From: Minisyncoccota bacterium
GTDB taxonomy: Bacteria > Patescibacteriota > Minisyncoccia > Phycocordibacterales > VMEP01
DNA length: 64,000 nt
Reading direction: 5' to 3'
Assembly (NCBI GenBank): GCA_041661305.1
Contig: JBAZUR010000003.1
Span: 5,103 to 69,102, forward strand
The notes beneath the pieces were generated by a model, which was not told where the DNA came from, ran no database searches, and was given only the letters and a program-made list of their open reading frames with translations. Position numbers and translations under genes: made by a program. Positions 6,936 to 58,963 of this stretch are shown here, in pieces; position 1 is the stretch's first letter; each line of letters begins with the position of its first letter.

Positions 6936-7008
6936 CCGCCCATAGCTCAGTTGGTAGAGCAGCTCCCTTTTAAGGAGAGGGTCGCAGGTTCGACTCCTGC
7001 TGGGCGGA
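6936..7008 (+). tRNA. tRNA-Lys (anticodon TTT)
   Basis: Cloverleaf folded by hand. Acceptor stem CCGCCCA/TGGGCGG, D-arm GCTCAGTTGGTAGAGC, anticodon loop CTTTTAA, T-arm GCAGGTTCGACTCCTGC. CCA is not encoded. Confidence 0.85.
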
Positions 7009-7032
7009 CAAGGTTAAACTAAATAGGCTGTT

Positions 7033-44695: not shown

Positions 44696-46345
44696 CTATT
44701 CAGGCTTTTTGTTTTTAGAAAGACAATATATTTCATTAGCAAAAGTTGGCAGAAATATTCTACCTGTTGTTTTGTTGAATGCTATTTTATCTGTAATTCT
44801 TTCTGTGGCCTGGAAAAATGCTGTGTTTTTTCCTGTTTTAAGATCGAGTTCATAAAGTCTTCCATCGTTTGATCCGATGTAAACACTGTCGTCGATTATT
44901 TCTGGGGAAGAAAAAATTCTGGCATTTGTTTTGAATTTCCAAACAACCACTCCTTTATCTAAGTCTATGCAGTACAGACTTTTATCAAGAGAGGATACAT
45001 AAGCAAAGCCGTCATTAACTGTAGGGGTAGAAAATATTGCCTCATCCGTTTTTATTTTATGAATTAGCTTGCCGGTCTTAGTTTCTAAAACGTATACACA
45101 TGAATCAAATGAACCAAAGACAACAACCCCAAGTTTTTCATCGAAGGAAAATGACCCCTTTATTTCACCCTCCGTCTTAAATGTCCAAAGAAGTTTTCCT
45201 GTTTTAACATCAAGACCATATACCGAAAAATCATTACACCCACAAATCACTATTCCTAGTTTAGAAGAATAAGCAGGTGAAGATTGAGTAAAATCAGACA
45301 TTGAGAACTCCCACATTTTTTCCCCCGAAGAAGAATCTAGGGCAACAAGGGCTCCTTGTTTTTTCCATAAACCAAACTCAAGACCGACAAAAATTGCACC
45401 GATGTCCTCTGCAATACAAGGAGATGACCCAATCCAGTCTGCTTCTAAGAAAACCCATTTTCTTTTGCCAGTAGAGGAATTAAGTGCGTAAAAATTACCA
45501 TCATTAGCCCCAAAATAAACAACATCTTTATAAACAACAGGGGAAGAGAAGGCCTTTCTTTTCTGAGCCCCTAATAAAATTTTATAATCCCAAACAGCCT
45601 TTCCGTCTATTTGGTTTAACGCCCAAAATACTCCATTGTCTCCGCCGAAATAAATTTTTTCTTTATCAACAGCTGGCGCTGATTTTGCGGTAACTAGGAA
45701 ATAGTTTGGTTTTTCACTTTTAAAATACCAGTCAATCTTAAAAGGAGTAGGAACGGGAAGCTCGGTCTTATCAATCAAATTAGAAACACCAAGCGAGCCC
45801 CCAAAGTCTTCAAGGGTAAAAAGGGAAATAATTTTTATTCCTCGTTCCGTGAGATAGGAGTAATATGGTAAATCTCGAAACCTTAAAATAACAAAAACAG
45901 CGCTTACTTTTTTACCAAGTGATTCAATAACCTCAATTTGCCGAATAAAACTTTTGCCACTATTAATAATATCGTCAACCAAAATAATTTTATCGTTGGA
46001 AATTTCACCCTCAATCATTCGAAGAAGGCCACTTTTTTTACGAGACTTTCGTATAAAAAATCCATTAGATATTTTATTTTTTTCCCTTACTTTTAAAACA
46101 AACGCTGTTATGAGAGGGATTGAAGCAACCTCGATACCGCCAATTTGAAAGGGATGTTCGTTTTTAAATTTTTCCCAAAATAATTCACTTACTATATTGA
46201 GAATTTCCGCACCAAGAAGTACTTTTCTAAAATCAAAAATCCAATCAGTTTCTGTGCCGTTTTGATCAACACTCCTTGCTTCTTTTTTTGTTATGAAGAC
46301 CTCTTTTTCTATTACTTCTTTAAGTTTTAATTGTGACGATTCCAT
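44696..46345 (-). CDS. Fusion protein: N-terminal type I phosphoribosyltransferase domain plus C-terminal PQQ-like beta-propeller
   Basis: PRTase PRPP-binding motif ILVDDIINSGKSF. The C-terminal half has repeated YxGxxDGxxYALxxxTGKxxW blades (BamB/PQQ-like). Confidence 0.6.
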   Translation of the reverse strand: MESSQLKLKEVIEKEVFITKKEARSVDQNGTETDWIFDFRKVLLGAEILNIVSELFWEKFKNEHPFQIGGIEVASIPLITAFVLKVREKNKISNGFFIRKSRKKSGLLRMIEGEISNDKIILVDDIINSGKSFIRQIEVIESLGKKVSAVFVILRFRDLPYYSYLTERGIKIISLFTLEDFGGSLGVSNLIDKTELPVPTPFKIDWYFKSEKPNYFLVTAKSAPAVDKEKIYFGGDNGVFWALNQIDGKAVWDYKILLGAQKRKAFSSPVVYKDVVYFGANDGNFYALNSSTGKRKWVFLEADWIGSSPCIAEDIGAIFVGLEFGLWKKQGALVALDSSSGEKMWEFSMSDFTQSSPAYSSKLGIVICGCNDFSVYGLDVKTGKLLWTFKTEGEIKGSFSFDEKLGVVVFGSFDSCVYVLETKTGKLIHKIKTDEAIFSTPTVNDGFAYVSSLDKSLYCIDLDKGVVVWKFKTNARIFSSPEIIDDSVYIGSNDGRLYELDLKTGKNTAFFQATERITDKIAFNKTTGRIFLPTFANEIYCLSKNKKPE

Positions 46346-46415: not shown

Positions 46416-48323
46416 ATGTTTTTAACCAACTTTAGCATACTGGAAAAGCTCTATGAGGTTTATTACTTCAAACAAATCAACTCTTTTTCTACGTGGCTTG
46501 TAAAAAATTCATTAGAAGATAGAAGTGTTTTTATTGACTTACCACATCAGGAAAGATTTTTGAAAGACAATTTTTCTAAAAATAAAGAAAAAAAGATCTC
46601 CTTTATTTTTTGTAAACCAAAAGGACTTCAAGGAGCACTTGAAAAAAATAATTTAAGTAACACAGATTCATGGAAGGATATTTTTTTGTCGAACGAGTTT
46701 GAGGTTTGGGAAAATAAAGAAATGTACCATGGTAGTAGTTTTCCAATCAGGTTTGGTTTAAATGAAGACGAGAAAAAAGAAGCACTTGGTTATGCAAGAA
46801 AAACCCTTGAAGTTTTTTTAAAAACAGGGAATCGAGAAAAAGTTTTATCTAAAAATTTATCAGAAAGATTTTTGGATAATGCGAGTGTTGATGTTGCGCT
46901 ATGGGTTAATGGGGAATTGCGTGGGTCACGCATTGTTGAAAACTTGCCACTTAGTGAGGCGATTGAGGAAGCTTCGATTCGTGCTTGTCGCGACGAGAGA
47001 TTCAAGCCTCTTTCTTTGGAAGAATTAGATAATACAACGATTGAAGTTGCGATACTTTCTAGTTTGCGCTTACCGCTTATGGAAAAAGAGAAAAGGGATA
47101 ATGATATCTACACGGAAAAAGGGTATGTGATGTCTGTGAAAGGAAAAACTGGTTGGTTTTTGCCAGCTGTTTTTAACTGCCTGACATTTAATGGGCTGGA
47201 TGATTTTTTAATAAACCTTATTGAAAAAAAGATTGGATTTCCAAAAGTTTACTTACCAGAAGCTTCAGTCGAAATATTTGAGGTTGATAATTTTGTTGAG
47301 TCAGTAGAAAAGACCCCGCTAGCACTTAAGGGGCCAGTTGTTTTAAGAAGTAGTTTGACTGAGGTGGGAGACAAAAAGCTTCTAGACTATTTTTATGAAG
47401 GTGCAGACAAGAGTGCAGATTTTCTTTGTAGAATACAAGAAAAAGATGGCAATATTCCCCCGGTTATAAACCCACTTACAGGAAAGGCAACTCAGGTAGA
47501 TTGGGTTCGCCTCGCCTTGTCGTCTTGGGCTCTTTTTGAATGGGGGAGGAAACAAGGAAATAGTGCCTACGAGGAATCAGCAAAGAAAAGTTTTTTGTAC
47601 CTTAGGGACAATTTATACAGCCACTCTTGTCTACCTGCATATTCTCGTTGTCTTTCGTTTATATACTATAGAAGGTTGGCGCTCTCTTTAGGGGAAATAG
47701 AAGAAGTCCAAAAGAGCAATAAAGTTATTGCTAGTATTATTTTAAATTTGGAATACGAGCCAATTTTATATTCGCAAATCGCCCATCATTTAATCGATAT
47801 TTCAAAAGGGAATGACGTTTCTTTAATGAAAGCAAAAGAGTTTACAGAAATTGTTTTAGCTGATTATCAAAAAAAGATTAAAGAAAATAACTCGAGCTTA
47901 GAATTGGCGAGATACCCCGAACTAATATACTTGCTTCGCGAAATTGGGGAGAGGGCAGGAAACACTGAACTTATAAAAAAATCGGAAGAAATTGAAAGTT
48001 GGTTTATTTCGAAGCAGTTTAGTGACGGGAGTTTCCCAAGCAAAGTTAATACAACATTTTCGTATGTAAGGGGTACGGGGAAAATATTTGAAGTGTTGTG
48101 TTTGAATCAAAAGAAAAATATAGATGTAATTGAAAAAGTTATAACGTGGATTATTGATATGCAATACATAGAAGATAACACTTTTTTTGTGAAAAATGAC
48201 ATAAAGGAACAAATCCTAGGAGGATTTCGCCATGATTACTTAAATCAAGCTGTTTGGATTGACGCCACAGCTCATGTGTTAATTGGAGCAACAAGACTTA
48301 AAAAGTCACGTAATCTCTTGTAG
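46416..48323 (+). CDS. AMMECR1-domain protein with a large C-terminal extension
   Basis: AMMECR1-like segment VALWVNGELRGSRI....ASIRACRDERFKPLS...IEVAILSSL, followed by about 400 aa of unknown alpha-helical region. Confidence 0.5.
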   Translation: MFLTNFSILEKLYEVYYFKQINSFSTWLVKNSLEDRSVFIDLPHQERFLKDNFSKNKEKKISFIFCKPKGLQGALEKNNLSNTDSWKDIFLSNEFEVWENKEMYHGSSFPIRFGLNEDEKKEALGYARKTLEVFLKTGNREKVLSKNLSERFLDNASVDVALWVNGELRGSRIVENLPLSEAIEEASIRACRDERFKPLSLEELDNTTIEVAILSSLRLPLMEKEKRDNDIYTEKGYVMSVKGKTGWFLPAVFNCLTFNGLDDFLINLIEKKIGFPKVYLPEASVEIFEVDNFVESVEKTPLALKGPVVLRSSLTEVGDKKLLDYFYEGADKSADFLCRIQEKDGNIPPVINPLTGKATQVDWVRLALSSWALFEWGRKQGNSAYEESAKKSFLYLRDNLYSHSCLPAYSRCLSFIYYRRLALSLGEIEEVQKSNKVIASIILNLEYEPILYSQIAHHLIDISKGNDVSLMKAKEFTEIVLADYQKKIKENNSSLELARYPELIYLLREIGERAGNTELIKKSEEIESWFISKQFSDGSFPSKVNTTFSYVRGTGKIFEVLCLNQKKNIDVIEKVITWIIDMQYIEDNTFFVKNDIKEQILGGFRHDYLNQAVWIDATAHVLIGATRLKKSRNLL

Positions 48324-48367: not shown

Positions 48368-48871
48368 ATGAATATCTCAATAAAAGAAATAGTAATTGCA
48401 CTTTCGTCTGTGGTGGTAACCATATTGGTTGTTTACTTAACACCATTAAAAAATCTAAATATTGTTGAGCCAACGATAAAAGACGTTGATCCAAAAGCTT
48501 TTTATACAGAGTTTCTTAAGAATAAGGACGGTTTCGTTTTTGTTGATGTAAGGCCGAGAGAGGCGTACAACGCCGTTCATGCTGAGGGTTCTATAAATAT
48601 CCCACTACACACTCTTTATGACGAAAGGCACAACCTTCCAAAGAGAGGTAAGCAAATAGTTCTTATTTGTAGTGGTGGGCGAGCCTCTGGTGTAGCTTAT
48701 GGATATTTGGAACATCATGGATTCCTTAACCTTCAAAGAATTGATGGGGGAATAGAAAAATGGTTGGCGGATGGCTTACCTATTGTTTCTAGTCGTGCAT
48801 TAGACGAAATTAAAGATATTCTTGATAAAGAGAAGGTTTCGTCGGTAGTTATCCCATGTGAGGTTTCGTAA
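48368..48871 (+). CDS. Membrane-anchored rhodanese-domain protein
   Basis: N-terminal transmembrane segment. Active-site loop ICSGGRASGVAYG. Confidence 0.7.
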   Translation: MNISIKEIVIALSSVVVTILVVYLTPLKNLNIVEPTIKDVDPKAFYTEFLKNKDGFVFVDVRPREAYNAVHAEGSINIPLHTLYDERHNLPKRGKQIVLICSGGRASGVAYGYLEHHGFLNLQRIDGGIEKWLADGLPIVSSRALDEIKDILDKEKVSSVVIPCEVS

Positions 48872-48891: not shown

Positions 48892-49182
48892 ATGATTCAG
48901 AAAGCAAAAAAAAGAACATCATTTTTTTTAGGCATCTTGGTTACAAGCATTTTGGGAACTATTGGTGGTTATGTAAATTCTAATTACTCAAAAGACGGTT
49001 CTTTCCTTGTATCTGTTGCTAAGGCAGATGTTCCTTCGCCGTTTGGTGGTACTGGTTTTGAAGGTGGTAGCGCTGGGGAAAGTGCTCTTGGTGTTGATGC
49101 TGGTAGTGGCGGTGGTAGTGGTTGCGATGGTGGTAGCGGTGGTAGTGGTGACGGTGGTGGTAGCGGAGGTGATTGCGGTTAA
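48892..49182 (+). CDS. Candidate RiPP (TOMM/LAP-type) precursor A: conserved N-terminal region plus Gly/Ser/Cys/Asp-rich C-terminal core
   Basis: N-terminus MIQKAKKRTSFFLGILVTSILGTIGGYVNSNYSK, then AKADVP, then a core ...GSGGGSGCDGGSGGSGDGGGSGGDCG. A paralog lies at 51335. A YcaO / SagB-dehydrogenase pair is 4.4 kb downstream. Confidence 0.5.
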   Translation: MIQKAKKRTSFFLGILVTSILGTIGGYVNSNYSKDGSFLVSVAKADVPSPFGGTGFEGGSAGESALGVDAGSGGGSGCDGGSGGSGDGGGSGGDCG

Positions 49183-49224
49183 CCTCTAAACAAGTATAGA
49201 AGTAGATAATATATTTAATTTATA

Positions 49225-50367
49225 ATGATAAATAAAAAGTTAGCTTTTTTGATTTACTTACTTCTTGGTGCACTTGTTGTTCTTTCTGGTTATCTTTTTT
49301 ACTATTTTTTTTATAAAGATATTGGGAAAGAGTCAAAGTTTTCTAATGAATTTCTAACCGAGGAATTAAATAAGAATAAAAACATTTCTTTAAAGAGAGA
49401 TGTTCTAGTAAAAGAAAATGAATTTTGGGCTAACGCTGACAAGCTTAGAAATGAAGGAAACAATGAGCTTGCCATCTTGGAGTACGAGAAAGCTATAGGA
49501 GTTGCTGGTACAGCAGAAGAACAAGGAATAATAAAAATTAGTCTCGGGCGTTTGTATTATAGATTGGGGAAATTTGACTTAGGGTCAAAAATATTTAAAG
49601 AGGTAGTAGGGAATCCTGATTATTCGAATATAACTAGAGCCTACGCTGTTGAGGCTATGGGTAATGAATATTATTCAAAATATGATCAGGAATTATTTAG
49701 TTCTATTTTTAACGAGGAACCATACCAAAGCTTTCTGGTGGCGAAAGATAAAGAACTTTCTATGAGGAAGTTGTTTGAGTATGGCACCACTTTTTACCCA
49801 TTACCACTATCAGAGGCTAGAATTGCTCAGTGGTACGCTAGTGAGTTAGTGAGAATAAAGAATAGTGGTTTAGAGGACCAAGAAACAAAAGCAAAAATAG
49901 ATTCTATGAAAGTGGTTATTAGAGAAAAATTAAATCTTGCCAATAAAGGCATAAAGGACATAGAAAATACTACGAATGCTCCAAGAATTCCAGTTGTTTT
50001 AAATAGGCTAGGTATTATTTCCATGAAAATGTATTTGTTTGGAGATGAGTCTTTTGGAAACCCGGCAGATTTGTTTGAAAGATCATTAGTATATTCGAAG
50101 CTATATAACTTAACTTCAACTGAAGGTTTTACTTATTATAATTACGCAGTTTTTTTGGCGAGGGTTTACGGCAAAGGAAAGACTAGTGAGATAGGTACCT
50201 TGTTGGGAAACCTTTATAATACCGATAAGTATAAAAATACCGATGTGTTTGTTTTTTTGAAAAACCAGAAAAATATCGAAGGAACAGTCAAAGATGACAT
50301 CTTGCTTTTAGCGTCTTTTGATCCAAAATTTAAGAAGCTACTATCCGAGCTAGGGTGGAGCTTTTGA
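49225..50367 (+). CDS. Hypothetical membrane-anchored protein (TPR-like helical repeats), partner of precursor A
   Basis: N-terminal transmembrane segment LAFLIYLLLGALVVLSGYLFYYFFY. Same architecture as 51681-52883. Confidence 0.45.
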   Translation: MINKKLAFLIYLLLGALVVLSGYLFYYFFYKDIGKESKFSNEFLTEELNKNKNISLKRDVLVKENEFWANADKLRNEGNNELAILEYEKAIGVAGTAEEQGIIKISLGRLYYRLGKFDLGSKIFKEVVGNPDYSNITRAYAVEAMGNEYYSKYDQELFSSIFNEEPYQSFLVAKDKELSMRKLFEYGTTFYPLPLSEARIAQWYASELVRIKNSGLEDQETKAKIDSMKVVIREKLNLANKGIKDIENTTNAPRIPVVLNRLGIISMKMYLFGDESFGNPADLFERSLVYSKLYNLTSTEGFTYYNYAVFLARVYGKGKTSEIGTLLGNLYNTDKYKNTDVFVFLKNQKNIEGTVKDDILLLASFDPKFKKLLSELGWSF

Positions 50368-50395
50368 TGGTAAAAGACTATCGGTAATAAAAAGA

Positions 50396-50426
50396 ATTGC
50401 CCAGGGTTATTAGCCTTGGGCAATTT
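50396..50426. terminator. Bidirectional terminator (aattgcccagggttattagccttgggcaatt)
   Basis: Inverted repeat between convergent genes. Confidence 0.65.
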
Positions 50427-50447
50427 GTTTCTTGCTGACGGTGGTGG

Positions 50448-51059
50448 TCAGTTCGTCTTGCGTACTTCAACCACGACCTGGTAGAGGTCAAATTCCGGCG
50501 ATTCGTACGAACAAATCATCGCCAGCTCCGGACAGTAGAAGTATTTCTCCATCGCCGGACGGAACGCTTCAGCTAGTTGGTTTGTGGCACGAATTTCGTA
50601 GGCCTTGAATACCCCGCCAGGCAGCTTGATGTCGCCGTATCCTACAACCTCTGCACTTCGCGTGCGTTTCTGAACCCGCCCGTTTGAGCTTTCTTGCTCA
50701 AACGATCCCTTCCAGCTATTTCCGTTTTTCATAGGAAACTGCAAGAAGTAGGAGTGCGGTTTGTAGGTTGCGTACGGGAACGGGCGAACCTTCGTGCCGA
50801 GGTCCTTGTTGAAGATGGTTTCCTTCTTTTCTTTGCCACCTTCTTCTTGGACCAAAAAAACAAAGTCCTCGCCTCGGCGTTCAAGAAACTCCGTTGTAAG
50901 ACATTCCGGCTTTTCGCGCACGTAGTAGCCGGTTTTGCACGTTTTTACCACGAGCCCCTTGGTCGGTTCCGGGTTTAAAGTGGCCGGCACTTCCTCCGCA
51001 GACACAAAAAGCGGAAAAATAAAAGCGCCGAAGGCACACACGAGCTTGATGATATTCAT
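50448..51059 (-). CDS. Hypothetical secreted protein (signal peptide; GC-rich gene)
   Basis: Signal peptide MNIIKLVCAFGAFIFPLFVSA. GC visibly above the window background. Confidence 0.5.
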   Translation of the reverse strand: MNIIKLVCAFGAFIFPLFVSAEEVPATLNPEPTKGLVVKTCKTGYYVREKPECLTTEFLERRGEDFVFLVQEEGGKEKKETIFNKDLGTKVRPFPYATYKPHSYFLQFPMKNGNSWKGSFEQESSNGRVQKRTRSAEVVGYGDIKLPGGVFKAYEIRATNQLAEAFRPAMEKYFYCPELAMICSYESPEFDLYQVVVEVRKTN

Positions 51060-51334
51060 GACGAACCTCCTTGTGTTGTATTGAAATACTAGATTTACAA
51101 TAGATCGAAGCTTCTTTCATGGTACAACAACCGACATTAAAAGTCAATACCGCTTTATAATATTCATGTTATTAGTTAAATTATTAGGAATTAAAATTAG
51201 AGAGGAAAATTAATGGGCGAGAGTCACAAAAATAAATAAACAGGTAACATTTATATACGAGGATTAGGGAAACCAACAGGAAGACATAGTTATCCACACG
51301 ATAGGTGTATTTTAGTGATATCATTGTCTGTAGC

Positions 51335-51616
51335 ATGATTCAGAAAGCAAAAAAGAAAACATCATTTTTATTAAGTATTCTTATTACTGGAATACTCGGG
51401 ACTATTGGTGGTTATGTAAACTCAAATTACTCAAAAAACAGTTCCTTGCTTGCTCCGATCGCTAAGGCTGATATACCTGCGACAAGCGCGGATATTTTTG
51501 GCGGCAGTAGCGCGGGGGACGCTGGTAGCGGTGACGGTGGCGGCAGTGGTGGTGATGGTGGCGGCAGTGGTGGTGATTGTAGTAGTAGCGGTGGTGACGG
51601 TGGTAGTGGATTCTAG
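51335..51616 (+). CDS. Candidate RiPP precursor B (paralog of 48892-49182)
   Basis: First ~120 nt nearly identical to precursor A at nucleotide level (atgattcagaaagcaaaaaa...). The core is GGSSAGDAGSGDGGGSGGDGGGSGGDCSSSGGDGGSGF. Confidence 0.5.
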   Translation: MIQKAKKKTSFLLSILITGILGTIGGYVNSNYSKNSSLLAPIAKADIPATSADIFGGSSAGDAGSGDGGGSGGDGGGSGGDCSSSGGDGGSGF

Positions 51617-51680
51617 TAAATAATGACGCAGGCTGGTGCGGTGATTAATATTTAGATTTGCAGTTTTTATTCTTTAAATT

Positions 51681-52883
51681 ATGGACGAAAAAGAAGAAAT
51701 TATAATTACCGAAGAAGATAATTTACCTAATAAGGTTTCTTATAGAAAAGTATCAATTTACGTACTTACTTTCATTGTATTTTTTATGGCTTCTTATGAA
51801 GGTTTTTATCGCGTTAAGATGATATCTGAAAAAAGAGAAGCAGGTAAGATTTTGGAAAGGGATAAAGCTTACTATGATAGCTTGCTCCAAAAAGATAAGG
51901 ATTATTATGAGAGTTTGCTTAAAAATAACCCTTCAGGGCTTCAGAACTCATTCGTAGAAGATATTAAGAGTGGCGTTAATAGTGGGGAGACAAAATCTGC
52001 CATATATTTTATAACGCATCGTTTTTTTGATAATGGTGGGAATATCTATGAAATTTATGATTACATAGAAAGTCACCCGGAACTATCTTTTCTTAAAGAG
52101 GCCGAAGGTATTTATCCAGATGTATTTGAACAGATAAAAGAAAAGAAGTTGCCATCAATATATACTTATTCCGCTTTTTATGCGTACCTTGCATACGTTG
52201 AAGTACTAAATAAATACGGTTATGCAGATGTTGCTACTTTAGCAACGGCGGCTAATCAGTATGCTGGAAATCTATACTTTAAAACAGTACTAACAAAAGA
52301 AATGGAGGAAAATGGCGAGGCTAGTCGCCTCAAAGATGTGTCCCGTGATTTAAAAAAATCATTAGATTTTCTAAACATGTCTGGTGGTGATGTGGAAAAA
52401 ATACTTGATGGTAAATTAACCTCAGACGATATGCCGTCCAGGGATATTTTGGTTGGTCTAAATCAGTATGCTTCAGCCTTAAGATACCTTGAAGCACTTG
52501 GAGTTAAAGCAACCTCAACAAAAACCTCACGAGAAGTTTTTGATTTTGCTATGGATTACTCTGCTCGTTTTGTGTTGGAATTAAATATTTTTACTTCTCT
52601 TGTTAATGCCTCAACACTAGCAATACTCGATTCAAGTACTTCTGAGGAAATAAAAATAGCACTGCTTCCAATTCTTAATTTCGATACAAAAAAACCCAAT
52701 TCTTACAAGGGGAGTGTTATTAGAAAAATTATACAATCAAGATTTGAACAAAAACCAAAAGAAATTAGTTACACAAGGTTGGATCTTTATAGTAAAAGAA
52801 ATGCCTTATTACTTGCAAGTAAGGTTCCAGATTTTAAGGCTTGGTTGATGTATAACGGGTGGGTAGAAGCTGATTTTAAGTAA
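51681..52883 (+). CDS. Hypothetical membrane-anchored protein, partner of precursor B
   Basis: N-terminal transmembrane segment VSIYVLTFIVFFMASY, about 400 aa, helical. Same gene order as the 49225 protein. Confidence 0.45.
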   Translation: MDEKEEIIITEEDNLPNKVSYRKVSIYVLTFIVFFMASYEGFYRVKMISEKREAGKILERDKAYYDSLLQKDKDYYESLLKNNPSGLQNSFVEDIKSGVNSGETKSAIYFITHRFFDNGGNIYEIYDYIESHPELSFLKEAEGIYPDVFEQIKEKKLPSIYTYSAFYAYLAYVEVLNKYGYADVATLATAANQYAGNLYFKTVLTKEMEENGEASRLKDVSRDLKKSLDFLNMSGGDVEKILDGKLTSDDMPSRDILVGLNQYASALRYLEALGVKATSTKTSREVFDFAMDYSARFVLELNIFTSLVNASTLAILDSSTSEEIKIALLPILNFDTKKPNSYKGSVIRKIIQSRFEQKPKEISYTRLDLYSKRNALLLASKVPDFKAWLMYNGWVEADFK

Positions 52884-53017
52884 ATACAGACTAATATAGA
52901 ACACGAAGCTAATAGTGATATTAGTTGGTTTGCATTATTTTTACTAATATGGTGTAATTAAAAGAGGTAGCAGAACATCGCGCACCAGGATTAATCTCAA
53001 ACTTACAGGAGGGTGCC

Positions 53018-53458
53018 ATGAAGATCTTCAAAAAAACTGTTTTTACTCTGATCGCCTTGCTCTTCGTTTTCGTCGGCGCTTCGTTTGCACAAACGAAGCT
53101 GGCGGCAGACGCGAGTGACGCAGGTAAGTCGGATGTAGCGGCAAATATTCCGGCCAACTGCGCCGCCTTTCTTGGGGCTTGGGTAGGTCGCTGGGAATAT
53201 GGCAATTACGGCGAAATGCGCCTGCAGGTTCTTGAAGTTGATACAAATTGTGTCGCCAAGGGTGCCTACGGAGGAAATACGGGGAAAGCATGGCCATACG
53301 AAGGTGCAGAAATCAAGGCCGACAAGATGTCCTGGCTTTGTAGCAAAGCCAGGACGGGGACATGTGTCTTCGAAAATCACGGCGATACGCTTTGGGCAAA
53401 CTACCACGATCCTTCCGGTGGCAAGAACAACGGCGTTTTCAAGAAAGTTGCCCAGTAA
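53018..53458 (+). CDS. Small secreted protein (signal peptide; strongly GC-rich gene)
   Basis: MKIFKKTVFTLIALLFVFVGASFAQT signal peptide. Followed by a strong terminator. The overlapping ORFs on other frames look like GC artefacts. Confidence 0.45.
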   Translation: MKIFKKTVFTLIALLFVFVGASFAQTKLAADASDAGKSDVAANIPANCAAFLGAWVGRWEYGNYGEMRLQVLEVDTNCVAKGAYGGNTGKAWPYEGAEIKADKMSWLCSKARTGTCVFENHGDTLWANYHDPSGGKNNGVFKKVAQ

Positions 53459-53494
53459 CAGACGAGGGTCTATGTTTTTTAGGAGAGACGAGAG

Positions 53495-53527
53495 AGGGGG
53501 GGCGTTAACGCCCCCCCCTTTTTTTAT
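53495..53527 (+). terminator. Terminator (gggggggcgttaacgccccccc + T-run)
   Basis: Perfect GC-rich hairpin plus T-run. Confidence 0.8.
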
Positions 53528-53604
53528 TGTAGATAATCACAATTTTTGTGGTCACAAAAACCAAATTGTGTGGCTGTATAATTCTATAGTACTATAAGCA
53601 CGAA

Positions 53605-54336
53605 ATGAGACCATTTTTATATAAATTTTTTCACAGGTTAACTAAAGATAAAACAGAGGGTGGTTTAATAAAAATTCCTGCTGATATGGCAATGTGGCCA
53701 GAAAGTTGGAAAATTGTGGAGTACAAAAAAATTTCTTTTTTTGATCCAATAAAACTTGCGGATAACGTAGACACAAAACTTTTTGAAATTCTGCAAAAAA
53801 GAACATCTGACCGTAAGTCACTATCTAGTAATGTTGTTACGTTAGAAAAAATATCAAAAATATTAAAGTGTGCTTGTGGAGAAATAAAAAGGAAAGATGG
53901 ATCCACGCACAGAACGGCCCCGTCTGGTGGTGGCAGGTATTCAATTGAATTGTATTTTTTGCTATTTAAAGAGGCTGAAGGGTTAAAGACCGGTGTGTAT
54001 CATTATGGTGTAGAGAATCATCAGCTTGAATTGATTGAACAAAAAAATTTTTCAGAAGAAGACATACTTTCTTACCAAAGCGACAAATGGGCGACTGTTG
54101 GTAGTGGTATGATGTGCATGACCAGTGTTTTTGATCGTTTTGCGCGCAAATATGGCAGTCGGGGGTATCGTTATATGTTATTAGAAGCCGGGCACATTGG
54201 TCAGAATATATTGCTCTCTGGTGTAGAAAATGATTTGGTTTTTGTACCAATTGGGTCGTCTAATGATGTAAGAGTAGAATCACTACTTAAAATAGACGGC
54301 AATAGCGAGAGCCTGGTCTACGCGATGTCTTTTTAA
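53605..54336 (+). CDS. SagB-type dehydrogenase (nitroreductase-family, McbC-like) of TOMM biosynthesis
   Basis: RTSDRKS, APSGGGRYSIELY, YRYMLLEAGHIGQNILL. These are typical of FMN-dependent SagB/McbC dehydrogenases. Confidence 0.75.
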   Translation: MRPFLYKFFHRLTKDKTEGGLIKIPADMAMWPESWKIVEYKKISFFDPIKLADNVDTKLFEILQKRTSDRKSLSSNVVTLEKISKILKCACGEIKRKDGSTHRTAPSGGGRYSIELYFLLFKEAEGLKTGVYHYGVENHQLELIEQKNFSEEDILSYQSDKWATVGSGMMCMTSVFDRFARKYGSRGYRYMLLEAGHIGQNILLSGVENDLVFVPIGSSNDVRVESLLKIDGNSESLVYAMSF

Positions 54337-54340
54337 TTTT

Positions 54341-55798
54341 ATGGAAAATAATTTATTTAATTCACCTGGGTATATTTTGGCAAAAGATTACGTTAATGAT
54401 ATTCGCCAAATGCAAAAGAACGGACCATGGAAGTTACCACTTGGTGTTGGTGACAGATTTCATATTTTTTTACTATCATTGTTTTTAAAATTTTCTTGGT
54501 TTAAGGATATTTATATTAAATATCCGCATGACCATAGTCCCGCATATGACATAATTATTAATTTCTTGAAAAGAAATAAAATATTGTCGGGGGTTATTAA
54601 GTTAAGCTCTGCTTCTTACTGGGGTATTAATATATACGTTTCGCACCTTTTTAACGGAGAGGTACTTTTGGTAAAAAGTACAGGACATCATAAAGAAAGC
54701 GATATAGCACTTTCTAAAACCATAGGAGAATTAATAGAAAGGGCTGTTTCTGGTGTTCGCGATGAAAATAATAATTTTATTTTTGGTTCGTTTAATGAGT
54801 TAAAAACAAAATATAAAAATATTTTTTACCCGCCTGTATACCATAGGTTTTTACCACAACAAAAGGATTTATTTAAAGATTTGAGAGTAGATGATGACCA
54901 AGAAATGGAGTGGGTTAAGGGCTTTAATTTTTTAACCAGTGAAGTTGCTTTGATCCCAAAAAACATTACCTCATGGAGACGCAAAAGAAACATAATAACC
55001 ATGAACCCGACTACAAGCGGTTCTGCGGGCGGGTTTTCAAAAGAGGATGTTATTAAGAATTCGATATTAGAATATATAGAAAGAGATTCATTTTTAATAC
55101 ATTGGTTAACGCAAATAGCCCCAAAAGTTATATCAAATGAATCATTACCAGAAGATTTATTTTTATATATTAAAGGTTTTAACAGTATTGGTATTAGTGC
55201 TTATGTTTTAGACACAACAACCAACGTGGGAATACCCTCGGCTTGTGTGGTTGTGAGAAAAAATAATTTGAATAAGAAGTCAGTTGCTGTCTCTGGTGGC
55301 GCTGGTATTGATTTACATACTGCAATCAAGAGAGCACTAGAAGAGGCTCAGCAGTGTGTTTTTAATCTTGATAAAAATGAAAGTGGTACTAAGGTTAGTG
55401 ATGTTAAGCCTTTTATAAGCGAAATAGACAGAGAAGAGAGAATAAGGATGTGGCAAGGAGAGGAATGGGTCAAACTTTTTGAATGGTTTATATCTGGTGA
55501 TGTTATTGAGTATAAAAATGACAATAACCTTGTATTAGAAACTAAAGATGAAATAACTTTTCTCAAAAATGTTTTCTCTAAGTTGGGAAGTGAATATACT
55601 CCGTTTATATATTTCCCTAAAAATAAAGCAATGGAGAAGCTTGGTTTTCAAGTGGCCCAAGCGTTTATCCCTTTTTGTTTCCCTCTGTTTTTGGTGGAAA
55701 AATATGGAACCTTCGATAGCGATAGGCTGAAACAATTCGCTAAATATAAAGGCGTTGATAATTTTAAATTAAATCCATACCCACATCCGTTCCCATAG
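54341..55798 (+). CDS. YcaO-domain protein (ATP-dependent cyclodehydratase)
   Basis: SKTIGELIERA, NPTTSGSAGGFSKEDVIKNSILEYIERD (YcaO S.G.A.G....E..ERD signature), SGGAGIDLHTAIKRALEEAQQ. Confidence 0.8.
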   Translation: MENNLFNSPGYILAKDYVNDIRQMQKNGPWKLPLGVGDRFHIFLLSLFLKFSWFKDIYIKYPHDHSPAYDIIINFLKRNKILSGVIKLSSASYWGINIYVSHLFNGEVLLVKSTGHHKESDIALSKTIGELIERAVSGVRDENNNFIFGSFNELKTKYKNIFYPPVYHRFLPQQKDLFKDLRVDDDQEMEWVKGFNFLTSEVALIPKNITSWRRKRNIITMNPTTSGSAGGFSKEDVIKNSILEYIERDSFLIHWLTQIAPKVISNESLPEDLFLYIKGFNSIGISAYVLDTTTNVGIPSACVVVRKNNLNKKSVAVSGGAGIDLHTAIKRALEEAQQCVFNLDKNESGTKVSDVKPFISEIDREERIRMWQGEEWVKLFEWFISGDVIEYKNDNNLVLETKDEITFLKNVFSKLGSEYTPFIYFPKNKAMEKLGFQVAQAFIPFCFPLFLVEKYGTFDSDRLKQFAKYKGVDNFKLNPYPHPFP

Positions 55799-55844
55799 TT
55801 ATTAAATTTGTTTTCATTTTTGCCTAAAAAATAAAAGTAACTTC

Positions 55845-56651
55845 GTGGTATTATTTATCAAAGTGAATAAAAATATAAAAAATAATTTTTATATTTCAGC
55901 GACTATTCTGGCAATAAGTGCTTTTGTTTTGTTTGTCTCTGTTTTTAATAATAAGTCTGCGTGGTTGATATGGAACAATTTTCATTGTGAACGCATTGCA
56001 AGTGCACTGGAGCAAAATGACCCCAAGCTATTTTTTGATATCGGTAATTATTATTTTGGAAAAGGTGCCTACGATTTAAAAAAAGTTGAAAGTTACTACA
56101 AGAAGGCGTTATTTCTAGAGCCTTCTTTGGAGGGGCTACATTACCAGTTGGCGCGAGTTTATTTTATAAAAAATGAGCTCTCTTTAGCGAGATATGAAAT
56201 CAATAAAGAGCTAGAATTACATCCAGATCTTAAGCGTTCATATTATGTTCGGGGGCTTATTAATGGGTACGATAATAATTTAGATGGGGCGATAGAAGAT
56301 TTTACAGAATTTCTTAAATGGAGTCCGGAGAGTTGGGCTGGTCACAATGATTTGGCTTGGATTTATTTTAAAAAAGGGAATTATGAAAAATCTCTTGCGA
56401 CCAGCGAAGAAGGTTTGAAGTATTATGCGGGTAGTGTCTGGCTTCTAAACTCAAAAGGGGTGGCACTAATTAATCTTGGGCGAAAAGAGGAAGCGAAAAT
56501 TGTTTTATCTCAGGCTTTATTGATTGCAGAAGGGATGAGCGCAGAAGATTGGGGTAAGTCATATCCAGGAAATAATCCGGATGTTTACATCGACGGCTTA
56601 GAGGCAATGAAAATATCAATAAAAAGAAATCTCGCTCTCGCGGGGAACTGA
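55845..56651 (+). CDS. Membrane-anchored TPR-repeat protein
   Basis: N-terminal transmembrane segment, then TPR-like repeats (YYKKALFLEP, ARYEINKELELHP, AIEDFTEFLKWSP). Confidence 0.55.
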   Translation: MVLFIKVNKNIKNNFYISATILAISAFVLFVSVFNNKSAWLIWNNFHCERIASALEQNDPKLFFDIGNYYFGKGAYDLKKVESYYKKALFLEPSLEGLHYQLARVYFIKNELSLARYEINKELELHPDLKRSYYVRGLINGYDNNLDGAIEDFTEFLKWSPESWAGHNDLAWIYFKKGNYEKSLATSEEGLKYYAGSVWLLNSKGVALINLGRKEEAKIVLSQALLIAEGMSAEDWGKSYPGNNPDVYIDGLEAMKISIKRNLALAGN

Positions 56652-56723
56652 AATACATAAAGAGTGGATAAGTGTGTTGTTACTTAACACACTTCATCGT
56701 GGTACTATATAAGAAATACAATT

Positions 56724-57797
56724 ATGTTAAATCGAATTATTTCGCCTAAAGGGAAAAGAAGTTTACTTTCATTACTGACGCTTTCCACTGTTTTTTTTAT
56801 TGTCGGTTTTAGTAGCGGAGAGGTATCTATAAAAAATATTGCACTTAATGAATCTCCAGAGATTGGGTTTACTTCACTTTCACCGAACGGTCTTTTGGGT
56901 GGAGAAATTATTCCCGCATCATGTGAGTCTGGAAATTATCATGATGCACCGGATTTTGGAACAGCATGTACCGCATCAAGTGTTTGCGGGCAGGCTTACG
57001 GCACAATTGGGTGTGGTGGTGTTTGTAGTGTGGCTGCTCCGTCAGTGCCAATTAATTATGGCCAATCCTGTTCCTCATCAAATATCTGCGGTTCAAACCA
57101 AGGAACAATAGTGTGTGATGGGTCCTGCAGTGCCATAGCCCCAGCCGTCCCCAGCAATTACGGTAGAGTCTGTCTCGTCTCAAATGTCTGTGGTCAATCA
57201 AACCAAGGAACAATAGGTTGTGATGGCACATGTACTGTCAAAGAAGCACCAGCGCTTCCATCAGGATACGGAACACCATGTCAATCGGGAACTAATAGCT
57301 GTGGTCAAAAAGCTACAGGAATAATCGGTTGTGGTGGATCATGTACAGCAGTTACCCCGTCTGATTCAAACTGCACCACATGTCCACTACCAAATGGTAA
57401 CGGAGTTTGTAACACAGCGGAAAATAACTCAAATTGTCCAGCCGACTGTCCATATGTCGCTCCAGCAACACCAACAGCACCTGCAGGAGAAGGGGCAATC
57501 TGGACACCGGCTACAGAATGGACACTAACAGCTTCACCAAACCCAATATTCGCCAACACAAGAACAACGGTAAGTTGGTCAGTTAGTGGAGCAACAGGAT
57601 GTACTCTTGTTGGAGTCGGGGCTGTTAGTGGAAAAGAAACAGATAGATTTGTCGGTGGCCCTGCTCTTGATTATCAATCAAGTAAACTACAAGAAAACAC
57701 AGACTTCACCCTAACTTGTTCCAATGCCTACAGTGGTAGAAAAGACTCGAAGACTGTTCGTGTTAATGTGCGTACGATTAAAGTACAGGAGTTCTAG
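56724..57797 (+). CDS. Secreted Cys/Gly/Ser-rich repeat protein (five C-x-CGQ-x-GTIGCxGxC modules)
   Basis: Signal peptide or transmembrane segment LLSLLTLSTVFFIVGF. About 40 Cys in repeats such as SSVCGQAYGTIGCGGVCSVAAP. Confidence 0.55.
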   Translation: MLNRIISPKGKRSLLSLLTLSTVFFIVGFSSGEVSIKNIALNESPEIGFTSLSPNGLLGGEIIPASCESGNYHDAPDFGTACTASSVCGQAYGTIGCGGVCSVAAPSVPINYGQSCSSSNICGSNQGTIVCDGSCSAIAPAVPSNYGRVCLVSNVCGQSNQGTIGCDGTCTVKEAPALPSGYGTPCQSGTNSCGQKATGIIGCGGSCTAVTPSDSNCTTCPLPNGNGVCNTAENNSNCPADCPYVAPATPTAPAGEGAIWTPATEWTLTASPNPIFANTRTTVSWSVSGATGCTLVGVGAVSGKETDRFVGGPALDYQSSKLQENTDFTLTCSNAYSGRKDSKTVRVNVRTIKVQEF

Positions 57798-57877: not shown

Positions 57878-58963
57878 ATGATTGATAATGATCGCCCAAT
57901 AGCAGTTACAATAAGTTCAGGGACTATTTTGAAGGCTGTGCTTATTCTTGTTTTGTTTGCCGGGCTGTATTTTTTACAAGACGTTGTTTTGGTAATACTT
58001 ACTTCGGTTGTTATCGCTTCTTCTGTTGAACCTGCAACAAGATGGTTTGCGAAGTACCACATAGCTCGCGTTCCAGCAGTTCTTTTTACATACATTACTT
58101 TTTTCGCTTTTCTTGTTGGGGTATCATATTTTTTTATCCCACCACTTTTAGATGATATGTCTGGGTTTGCTGCTTCTGCTCCTGAATATCTAAACTCAGT
58201 GAATATTTTTTCCGAGACCGGTGTCAGAAGTTTTGTTGGTTCTTCTCGTGACGTAGTTTCTTCTTTGAATGATAGTGGCTTCCAAACGCAAGAAATAATT
58301 TCCAATTTAAGAGACGCTTTCTCAAGTTTTTCTGGCGGAATTACAAAAGGGGCGAGTATGGTCTTTGGTGGAATTTTTAGTTTTATTCTTATTATTGTAA
58401 TTTCATTTTATTTAGCAGTTCAAGAAAGAGGAATAGAAACTTTTTTGCGTAGCTTAACTCCTCTTAGATACGAATCGTATATTACAGGCTTGTGGGCTAG
58501 GGCCCAGAATAAAATAGGTTTATGGATGCAGGGGCAACTTCTCCTCGGATTTTTTATTGGAATCCTGGTTTATTTAGGTCTTGCAATCATGGGTATTCCT
58601 TATGCACTTCTCCTTGCTGTTGTTGCTGCGACCCTTGAGCTCATCCCACTTTTCGGCCCGATAATTGCAGCTGTACCAGCTGTTGCCCTTGGTTTTTCGC
58701 ACGGAGGAGTAGCTCTCGGGCTTATGGTTATTGGTTTTTACATAATCATTCAGCAGTTTGAAAATCATTTGATTTATCCACTTATTGTGAGAAAAATAAT
58801 AGGAGTGCCACCAATTTTAGTGATTCTATCTCTTATTGTTTGCGCAAAACTTTTTGGATTCCTAGGACTTATTCTTGCAGTCCCGTTCATTTCAGTAGTA
58901 CTTGAGATGGTGGACGATTTTGAAAAAGAGAAAAAACAAACAGGAGTGAACATGATTTCTTAA
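57878..58963 (+). CDS. AI-2E family transporter (UPF0118/PerM-like)
   Basis: Eight transmembrane segments with the conserved LELIPLFGPIIAAVPAV region. Confidence 0.7.
   Translation: MIDNDRPIAVTISSGTILKAVLILVLFAGLYFLQDVVLVILTSVVIASSVEPATRWFAKYHIARVPAVLFTYITFFAFLVGVSYFFIPPLLDDMSGFAASAPEYLNSVNIFSETGVRSFVGSSRDVVSSLNDSGFQTQEIISNLRDAFSSFSGGITKGASMVFGGIFSFILIIVISFYLAVQERGIETFLRSLTPLRYESYITGLWARAQNKIGLWMQGQLLLGFFIGILVYLGLAIMGIPYALLLAVVAATLELIPLFGPIIAAVPAVALGFSHGGVALGLMVIGFYIIIQQFENHLIYPLIVRKIIGVPPILVILSLIVCAKLFGFLGLILAVPFISVVLEMVDDFEKEKKQTGVNMIS

Follow-up and report, generated by a model that had tools for sequence, protein, structure and literature searches.

The 64,000-nucleotide stretch of contig JBAZUR010000003.1 analyzed here (GenBank assembly GCA_041661305.1, positions 5,103 to 69,102; hereafter the window) carries a YcaO gene preceded by a SagB-type dehydrogenase gene and, farther upstream, by two small genes, A1 and A2. 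We examined a locus of 15 genes around the two enzymes and compared it with loci of relatives (L001-L057), which were fetched by searches anchored on YcaO and on PRT-PQQ, a protein that combines a phosphoribosyltransferase-like domain with a PQQ-type beta-propeller. The locus is a real, conserved and uncharacterised YcaO/SagB system of Paceibacteria for peptides that are made on the ribosome and modified after translation (RiPPs), and its YcaO and SagB constitute a divergent peptide-modification system of an uncultured Paceibacterota bacterium of the Candidate Phyla Radiation (CPR). The original prediction had placed the system at 48892-57797; all the features it named were recovered at the positions it gave, whereas the conserved unit is larger than that range and begins at 44696. 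The genes and features are listed below.

44696-46345 (-): PRT-PQQ, 549 residues, phosphoribosyltransferase-like domain and PQQ-type beta-propeller, without signal peptide; conserved neighbour of the YcaO system
46416-48323 (+): AMMECR1-domain fusion protein, 635 residues; PF01871, 51.7 bits; neighbour within this clade and at type-2 YcaO loci (see below)
48368-48871 (+): rhodanese; PF00581, 54.9 bits; transmembrane (TM) helix at residues 8-26; CSGGRAS loop; part of the A1 cassette
48892-49026 (+): A1 leader, residues 1-45; MIQKAKKR, 19-residue hydrophobic helix, NSNYSKDGSFLVSV, AKA; leader hidden Markov model (HMM) E=1e-26
49027-49182 (+): A1 core and stop codon; 51 residues, 2 Cys, 9 Ser/Thr, GGDCG end; 27-nucleotide tandem repeat at 49101-49170
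49225-50367 (+): B380, the A1 partner; N-terminally membrane-anchored helical-repeat protein; TM helix at residues 6-24
50448-51059 (-): S203; secreted, classical signal peptide (..FVSA|EE); GC content at third codon positions (GC3) 0.62
51335-51469 (+): A2 leader, residues 1-45; leader HMM E=3e-26; 73% identity to the A1 leader
51470-51616 (+): A2 core and stop codon; 48 residues, 1 Cys in GGDCSSSGG, Phe end; 21-nucleotide tandem repeat at 51530-51603
51681-52883 (+): B400, the A2 partner; membrane-anchored all-alpha TPR-like protein
53018-53458 (+): S146; small secreted Cys-containing protein; GC3 0.56; followed by a strong terminator-like hairpin
53605-54336 (+): SagB-type flavin mononucleotide (FMN) dehydrogenase (azoline oxidase); TIGR03605, 115.6 bits, curated cutoff 78.4
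54341-55798 (+): YcaO cyclodehydratase, 485 residues, single YcaO domain, NPYPHPFP end; PF02624, 118 bits, cutoff 25.7
55845-56651 (+): TPR268; N-terminally anchored TPR protein; TPR_2, 51.5 bits; TM helix at residues 15-33
56724-57797 (+): Cys357; secreted or anchored; four Cys-rich repeats of ~34 residues; without Pfam match
57878-58963: AI-2E transporter; PF01594, 200 bits; outside the conserved set

Both enzyme assignments, made earlier from the letters of the sequence, stand in the Pfam (PF02624) and TIGR03605 profile searches. The ATP/Mg motifs GELIER and TSGSAGG..E..ERD of the YcaO are invariant across the family alignment, as is the S.G.A.G....E..ERD signature that had been reported for this gene and is present in it. 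The C-terminus of the family reads N-P-x-P-H-x-F (NPYPHPFP in the window, with P481 and H482 invariant), and the YcaO of the window thereby carries the PxPxP motif that is canonical for azoline-forming YcaOs (PMC12338566). Alignment of this C-terminus to solved structures gave no match, so the assignment of the motif is based on sequence and on the cited work. An AlphaFold (AF2) model of the YcaO (pLDDT 82, pTM 0.87) finds its best Foldseek matches in the YcaO halves of LynD, MusD and TruD (~460 columns, E ~1e-17 to 3e-18), with archaeal YcaOs, the YcaO of E. coli and McbD as lower matches. The N-terminal 116 residues, considered as a possible extra domain, belong in the model to an extended YcaO fold as in LynD, and hence the protein has no fused E1-like domain or RiPP recognition element (RRE). 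The SagB gene lies directly upstream, as had been stated, with its stop codon 4 nucleotides before the YcaO start, and the two genes are translationally coupled in the window. SagB is matched in the PDB by the azoline oxidases BmdC, McbC and those of the CyaGox/ThcOx type, and its motif RKYGSRGYRY..EAGH aligns with the same region of these oxidases. Pfam and NCBIfam searches with the 15 locus genes returned no E1-like, Ocin-ThiF, PqqD/RRE, TfuA, peptidase or ABC-transporter match, in agreement with the earlier remark that an E1-like or 'C-protein' partner is not obvious.

A1 (48892-49182, 96 residues) and A2 (51335-51616, 93 residues) are paralogues, as originally proposed, with 36 of 49 N-terminal residues identical (73%, E=3e-26), and their Gly/Ser/Asp/Cys-rich tails are encoded by tandem repeats of 27 and 21 nucleotides, respectively. 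The 45-residue leader of the A family consists of M-(I/V)-Q-K-x-K-K-(R/K), a hydrophobic helix of ~19 residues, the stretch (R/N)-S-N-Y-S-K-x-x-S-(L/F)-x-x-P and an (A/V/T)-x-A-D motif that is invariant even at distant loci with a second type of YcaO (type 2, described below). A phmmer search with the leader only, against 1.84 billion representative proteins, gave 33 matches, 26 of which are A-type proteins of 70-212 residues. Two of the long matches (P0314 and P0324) were rejected as A homologues, being unrelated repeat proteins in which 'NYSKDGSFLVS' has a chance likeness to WD40-like strands. We note separately that this leader segment (window 48892-49038) resembles the 'YSPDGKxIVS' strand motif of WD40-type propellers, probably by chance, and that PRT-PQQ, conserved beside the system and cytoplasmic, is a beta-propeller protein.

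The cores were compared over 40 members of the A family. Cys is present in all 40, 'CS' in 35, 'GCS' in 28 and 'CGGC' in 18, often as GDGCGGCS, and 18 cores end in an aromatic residue. The composition (G 33%, D 15%, S 14%, C 8.6%, with no Lys or Arg) makes the cores strongly acidic and of low complexity. In the window, the A2 core keeps a 'DCSSS' site and the A1 core has GSGC and the C-terminal GGDCG, the latter shared with an A gene at L034, which is a distant type-2 locus. The leader is thus conserved while the core changes by repeat expansion, and a conserved leader joined to a variable Cys/Ser/Gly core is, as judged from sequence, the pattern expected of a RiPP precursor.

The linkage of A genes to YcaO was assessed in relatives. 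A word-indexed search for YcaO homologues gave 25 YcaOs of 37-89% identity, and a scan of 185,579 species genomes led to 27 loci, mostly from metagenome-assembled genomes (MAGs) that are Patescibacteria/CPR by name, along with a few bins named Bdellovibrionales, Myxococcales or plain 'bacterium'; the window genes were compared by BLASTP with all open reading frames (ORFs) of the fetched loci, and the leader HMM was applied in addition. The closest locus is that of 'Parcubacteria group bacterium LiPW_30'. An A homologue neighbours YcaO in more than 20 loci of related Patescibacteria. It lies directly downstream of YcaO in 15 of the fetched loci (L003/4/9, L008, L010-L018, L021, L023), where the YcaO shares only 35-45% identity with that of the window, and in the close relatives L001, L005 and L006 an A gene lies within 6 kb upstream of YcaO, as in the window. 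Where the flank is long enough, loci with a YcaO of this type (35% identity or more) all have one A gene or more, and no other small Cys/Ser-rich ORF is conserved beside the enzymes. The comparison with other YcaO-dehydrogenase neighbourhoods, which had been proposed as a check, therefore links the small genes to YcaO and upholds their reading as precursors; A1 and A2 are very probably, on this linkage and their sequence pattern, substrates of the enzymes.

The conserved neighbourhood consists of Cys357-like, TPR268, S146-like, PRT-PQQ, SagB, YcaO, A and B genes, and in no related locus does it include a transporter or a peptidase. The membrane and secreted genes between precursors and enzymes, which had been taken for extra genes interrupting the locus, are thus conserved in related loci and are components of the system. 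An AI-2E transporter does lie near the locus, as noted originally; it was rejected as an exporter or core part since it adjoins the system only in close relatives (L001, L005, L007) and is absent from distant loci, so that it falls outside the conserved set.

The A and B genes are paired 1:1, each B gene coming directly after its A gene. B400 is without a Pfam domain, its homologues number 138, and its model (pLDDT 87.8) has a TM helix at the N-terminus that leads into an all-alpha superhelix, a helical-repeat fold of ligand- or peptide-binding type. A direct BLASTP comparison of B380 with B400 was insignificant; profile-profile comparison of B380 with the B400 family by hhalign gave a probability of 97.9% (E=4.6e-13) with a C-terminal LGW motif in both, and by this measure the two are remote homologues within one superfamily. 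The B380 proteins of L001 and L006 are 79-90% identical to that of the window. The cassettes [A2-B400-S146] and [rhodanese-A1-B380-S203] occur singly, together or in swapped order in L001, L005, L006 and the window, and A-B cassettes have apparently been gained, lost and reordered among genomes whose YcaOs are ~80% identical. B380, TPR268, Cys357, S146 and S203 each have an anchor at the N-terminus or a classical signal peptide, and SagB, YcaO, PRT-PQQ and the AMMECR1 protein have neither. Almost all related loci contain a TPR268 homologue, which in most of them is flanked by Cys357 homologues of 300-710 residues; Cys357 itself comprises four tandem Cys-rich modules of ~34 residues (P..YG..C.S.N.CGQ..GTI.C.G.C) and a C-terminal domain. 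S146 homologues were found in L003-L009, L014, L016, L018 and L020-L022, and S203 orthologues in L001, L002 and L006, with a weak match to a 202-residue secreted protein in L033. The rhodanese accompanies cassettes of the A1/B380 type (L001, L006, L024, L026, L034, L040, L043-46, L048, L057), and AMMECR1-fusion homologues stand beside PRT-PQQ or YcaO in L001, L005, L006, L027, L032, L035 and L036.

PRT-PQQ matches PF13570 with 198 bits and PQQ_2 with 121 bits, and Pribosyltran with 25.3 bits, just under the cutoff; its VDD..N.GKS loop is invariant. It adjoins or overlaps SagB-YcaO in many loci (in L003 it overlaps the SagB start) and is close to YcaO in 17 of the ~20 loci where the flank suffices. 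As a dedicated component of the system it was rejected, the link being strong but non-exclusive: the family has at least 1225 homologues, far more than the close YcaO family, and among loci with long flanks that were anchored on PRT-PQQ, YcaO lies within 10 kb in ~9 of 14 and is absent in L033, L039, L040, L041 and L051. Two of these (L033 and L040) have A- and B-like genes all the same.

A second, remoter type of YcaO, 27-32% identical to that of the window, is also present in Patescibacteria (L024, L026, L027, L032, L034, L043-L048). The type-2 loci have B380-type partners, rhodaneses, AMMECR1-fusion proteins and A-like peptides with other leaders and the same A-H-A-D site. One of them, L024, holds three copies of the rhodanese, and SagB was undetected in the fetched stretches of L024, L027 and L032.

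In several relatives the A protein is extended to 210-300 residues by an intein-like pretoxin-HINT (PT-HINT) domain (PF07591, cutoff 27.7 bits, with scores of 34.2 and 48.9 bits), namely in L010-12, L015, L018 (two copies), L020, L045, L046, L050 and P0344. The coordinates of HINT-fused A genes are as follows.

L010, 9509-10414: HINT-fused A gene
L012, 3771-4619: HINT-fused A gene
L015, 1939-2757: HINT-fused A gene
L018, 5474-6277: HINT-fused A gene
L018, 6366-7064: HINT-fused A gene
L020, 3760-4548 (-): HINT-fused A gene
L045, 7282-8106 (-): HINT-fused A gene
L046, 5942-6793 (-): HINT-fused A gene
L050, 250-1068 (-): HINT-fused A gene

The domain either comes directly after the Cys-rich core (..GGCACGGCSGG|CFPAGT...VHNKE) or follows the leader, with a second 'IPTASAD' motif and then the core behind it. 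These arrangements suggest a self-cleavage that would release or activate the peptide, with the core as the released payload. No paper mentioning both YcaO and a Hint domain was found in the literature searched.

The two secreted-protein genes described as GC-rich are indeed so, with GC3 values of 0.62 (S203) and 0.56 (S146) against 0.25-0.33 in their neighbours. The excess lies at synonymous sites, and amino-acid composition is therefore no explanation for it. Their orthologues in other low-GC relatives (L001, L005, L006, L007, L018) likewise have a GC3 of 0.55-0.75, and in the distant L018 this value is high while that of the YcaO gene is 0.39. A single recent transfer is hard to invoke, given this persistence across lineages. 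Elsewhere in the window, GC3-rich islands are found at 14.9-15.3 kb, 23.4-24.6 kb and 32.8-35.6 kb (GC3 0.5-0.66 against a window median of 0.33); they include genes that are CDF-transporter-like, ThyX-like and thymidylate-kinase-like by their N-terminal sequences, and may have been acquired horizontally. A 'tRNA-Stop(tta)' suppressor called by ARAGORN at 6936-7009 (+) was dismissed as a one-base register artefact, the anticodon loop CTTTTAA being that of tRNA-Lys(UUU). As TAA is also the commonest stop codon of long ORFs in the window (44 of 68), there is no stop-codon reassignment.

The mechanism that we propose is throughout our interpretation of the observed gene content, conservation and sequence features. 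Since neither an exporter nor a peptidase is conserved, the simplest reading is modification in the cytoplasm, Sec export and cleavage at A-x-A|D. By analogy with the enzyme families, YcaO and ATP would cyclodehydrate the core Cys, and probably the adjacent Ser too, and the SagB-type flavoprotein would then oxidise the azolines to azoles. The usual target in the family would be G-C-S or C-G-G-C-S, yielding thiazole or thiazole-oxazole units, and for the window the corresponding targets would be GSGC and GGDCG of A1 and GGDCSSS of A2. The leader, with its basic region, hydrophobic helix and small-x-small site, is predicted to resemble a Sec signal-anchor, a role that would fall to the basic N-terminus and the 19-residue helix. 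It has five Lys/Arg on the N side of the helix and one on the C side, a distribution that predicts an N-in/C-out topology, and the Kyte-Doolittle (KD) hydropathy of the helix is 1.74 in A1 and 1.74-1.81 overall. The SNYSK..S.L.P stretch is the likely enzyme-recognition element; recognition of the leader would proceed without an E1-like/RRE partner, and the cytoplasmic PRT-PQQ is the best candidate for an accessory protein. Cleavage after A/V-x-A, before the Asp at +1, would leave an acidic peptide of 48-51 residues outside the membrane, and this route would explain the lack of a dedicated exporter or leader peptidase. The gene pairing suggests that the peptide is received by the B protein encoded next, B380 for A1 and B400 for A2, and the co-conserved extracytoplasmic proteins TPR268, S146/S203 and Cys357 would take part too. 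We put at roughly 60% the probability that A1 and A2 are precursors, made on the ribosome, of an azol(in)e peptide family that is specific to Patescibacteria and behaves in this way, Sec export and capture by B included.

Several observations weigh against this interpretation. The YcaO scores 142 bits against the SagD-family model TIGR03604 of NCBIfam, below the curated cutoff of 219, and is therefore a divergent member; no E1-like/RRE partner is present among the locus genes, and most azole-forming YcaOs need one. The cores of the window are poor in Cys (two in A1, one in A2), and A1 is without a 'CS' site. The spacer of ~17 residues from the helix to AxA is long for a signal-peptidase I site, and by charge bias only 25 members of the B400 family out of 42, the B400 of the window not among them, are predicted to have a domain that faces outward. 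A and B genes also occur without a YcaO within 10 kb (L033/L037 and L040). Lastly, strong terminator-like hairpins lie at 50394-50426, between the convergent B380 and S203 genes (15-bp stem), and at 53496-53517, after S146 (9-bp all-GC stem). With these the locus would comprise four or more transcription units, so that precursors and enzymes, parted by these putative terminators, are predicted to be in separate units and not co-transcribed in this genome.

The peptides could instead be diffusible antibacterial azoles acting on competitors or hosts in the manner of microcin B17 or phazolicin, with the B proteins as self-immunity, a reading that we regard as unlikely while giving it serious weight. 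The family cores with GDGCGGCS resemble the GGCGGCSNGCSGG stretch of McbA, each A gene has a variable partner as in toxin/immunity pairs, the cassettes turn over between close relatives, some relatives carry the pretoxin-HINT-type domain, and the same analogy was drawn by Sharrar et al. (PMC7298704). However, McbB, McbEFG, an ABC exporter and a leader peptidase are all missing from the locus, the cores are strongly acidic and of low complexity, and the envelope-protein neighbourhood is conserved across deep divergence amid housekeeping genes, which looks like vertical, physiological retention and not like a sporadic antibiotic cluster. Our tentative preference is for a cell-associated product, either a cation- or metal-binding peptide or an envelope peptide, over a diffusible antibiotic.

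It is improbable, in our estimate, that A1 and A2 are unmodified, membrane-anchored Gly-rich envelope proteins, with YcaO and SagB acting on another substrate and linked to them only through the PRT-PQQ/envelope neighbourhood. The signal-anchor-like leader of the A proteins and the few Cys of the window cores are in keeping with such a role, as are the greater spread of PRT-PQQ relative to YcaO and the loci (L033/L037, L040) where A, B, TPR and Cys-rich genes flank PRT-PQQ with no YcaO within 10 kb; it is countered by the A genes directly after YcaO in 15 divergent loci, by the universal Cys, with GCS in 28 and CS in 35 of 40 cores, amid a Gly/Asp repeat, and by the lack of an alternative conserved Cys/Ser-rich small ORF beside the enzymes. 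More improbable still is a different backbone chemistry of the YcaO, such as thioamidation or the formation of amidines, in which the neighbouring rhodanese would relay the sulfur. The rhodanese travels with A1/B380-type cassettes and is present in three copies beside the YcaO of L024, where no SagB was detected nearby, L032 likewise has a YcaO and no SagB, and Mj1094 and the Methanopyrus YcaO, both thioamide-forming, are also good structural matches. Yet the locus has no TfuA, the SagB of the window is translationally coupled to YcaO, the P-x-P-x-P C-terminus is present, and the rhodanese has an N-terminal TM helix and so may face outward.

Azole formation on A1 and A2 followed by Sec export remains our preferred reading, and a bolder form of it may be outlined, which is tentative and possible rather than probable as a whole. 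The locus would then represent a distinct, Patescibacteria-wide group of azole peptides with a Sec signal-anchor leader, in which PRT-PQQ presents the substrate to a stand-alone YcaO in place of an E1/RRE protein. The acidic thiazole/oxazole product would be bound at the surface to a cognate, membrane-anchored TPR-like receptor, where it would bind cations or metals or serve as an element of the envelope or of host contact, and in some lineages HINT would release the core or activate it C-terminally. CPR/Patescibacteria have tiny genomes with few recognisable specialised-metabolite genes, and yet YcaO/SagB and a fixed envelope set are kept even between families with YcaOs of only 35-45% identity. 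If the proposal is correct, this would be an azole-forming YcaO that works without a canonical E1/RRE partner, the phosphoribosyltransferase-beta-propeller fusion would be a candidate new accessory protein, the HINT-fused A proteins would be the first RiPP precursors with HINT autoprocessing domains in the literature searched, and the system would open a concrete approach to how the surface of episymbiotic CPR cells is decorated or defended.

The kind of system is known and its occurrence in CPR has been published. Sharrar et al. (mBio 2020, PMC7298704) described an antiSMASH-predicted cluster for a linear azol(in)e-containing peptide (LAP), peptidase included, in a Microgenomates MAG and, for 93 further CPR genomes (51 of them Parcubacteria), counted 110 predicted LAP clusters; a nitroreductase gene adjoins YcaO in 89 of these clusters. 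The locus of the window shares with these Parcubacteria and Microgenomates clusters a YcaO beside a nitroreductase-family dehydrogenase and a small Cys/Ser-rich ORF, and is almost certainly to be counted among those antiSMASH calls; the original claim of a previously undescribed system is therefore too strong. That report, which gives the count and the one Microgenomates example, is silent on the leader family with its signal-anchor and AxA|D site and on the B partners, and neither PRT-PQQ nor the HINT fusions nor the envelope genes are described in it; the features worked out for this locus were not found elsewhere in the literature searched.

The label 'microcin-B17-like' likewise does not hold as a statement of membership. 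The locus shares with microcin B17 (McbABCDEFG) a Gly/Ser/Cys-rich core, the CGGCS-type site of most A-family members, which is also found in McbA, and the chemistry of a YcaO (McbD) and an FMN dehydrogenase (McbC). It lacks McbB (E1-like/RRE), the McbEF exporter and the McbG immunity protein, its leader is unrelated to the McbA type, hydrophobic and signal-anchor-like, and its cores are strongly acidic. McbC and McbD are distant matches only, McbD being a weak match by sequence (E=5.9e-5) and ranking by fold below LynD, MusD, TruD and archaeal YcaOs; the likeness is one of core composition only. The cyanobactin heterocyclases LynD, TruD and MusD are the best matches of the YcaO domain in both structure and sequence (Foldseek E ~3e-18, TMq 0.66) but have a fused N-terminal E1-like and RRE half, whereas the 485-residue protein of the locus is a YcaO domain only. 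YcaO-TfuA thioamidation systems differ in that the locus has a SagB and no TfuA match. The A proteins of some relatives share with polymorphic toxins the pretoxin-HINT domain (PF07591), which in these relatives lies beside a Cys/Gly core; the fusion is absent from the window, however, and in relatives the domain is flanked by a low-complexity core of 20-60 residues and not by a folded toxin domain. The only precedent found for a RiPP precursor with a Sec signal is that of the bufferins, which are described as 'rare' on account of this signal; in them Cys is modified in the cytoplasm and the peptide, with its metal-binding heterocycles, is exported by the general pathway (PMC11626156). Bufferins and the A family would have in common a Sec-type signal at the N-terminus where other precursors have a classical leader, and modification before export, but the enzymes (MNIO/DUF2063 and not YcaO/SagB) and the precursors are unrelated, and the likeness is one of logic only. 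If the route proposed here is correct, the A family would be a second, independent case of Sec-routed RiPPs after the bufferins.

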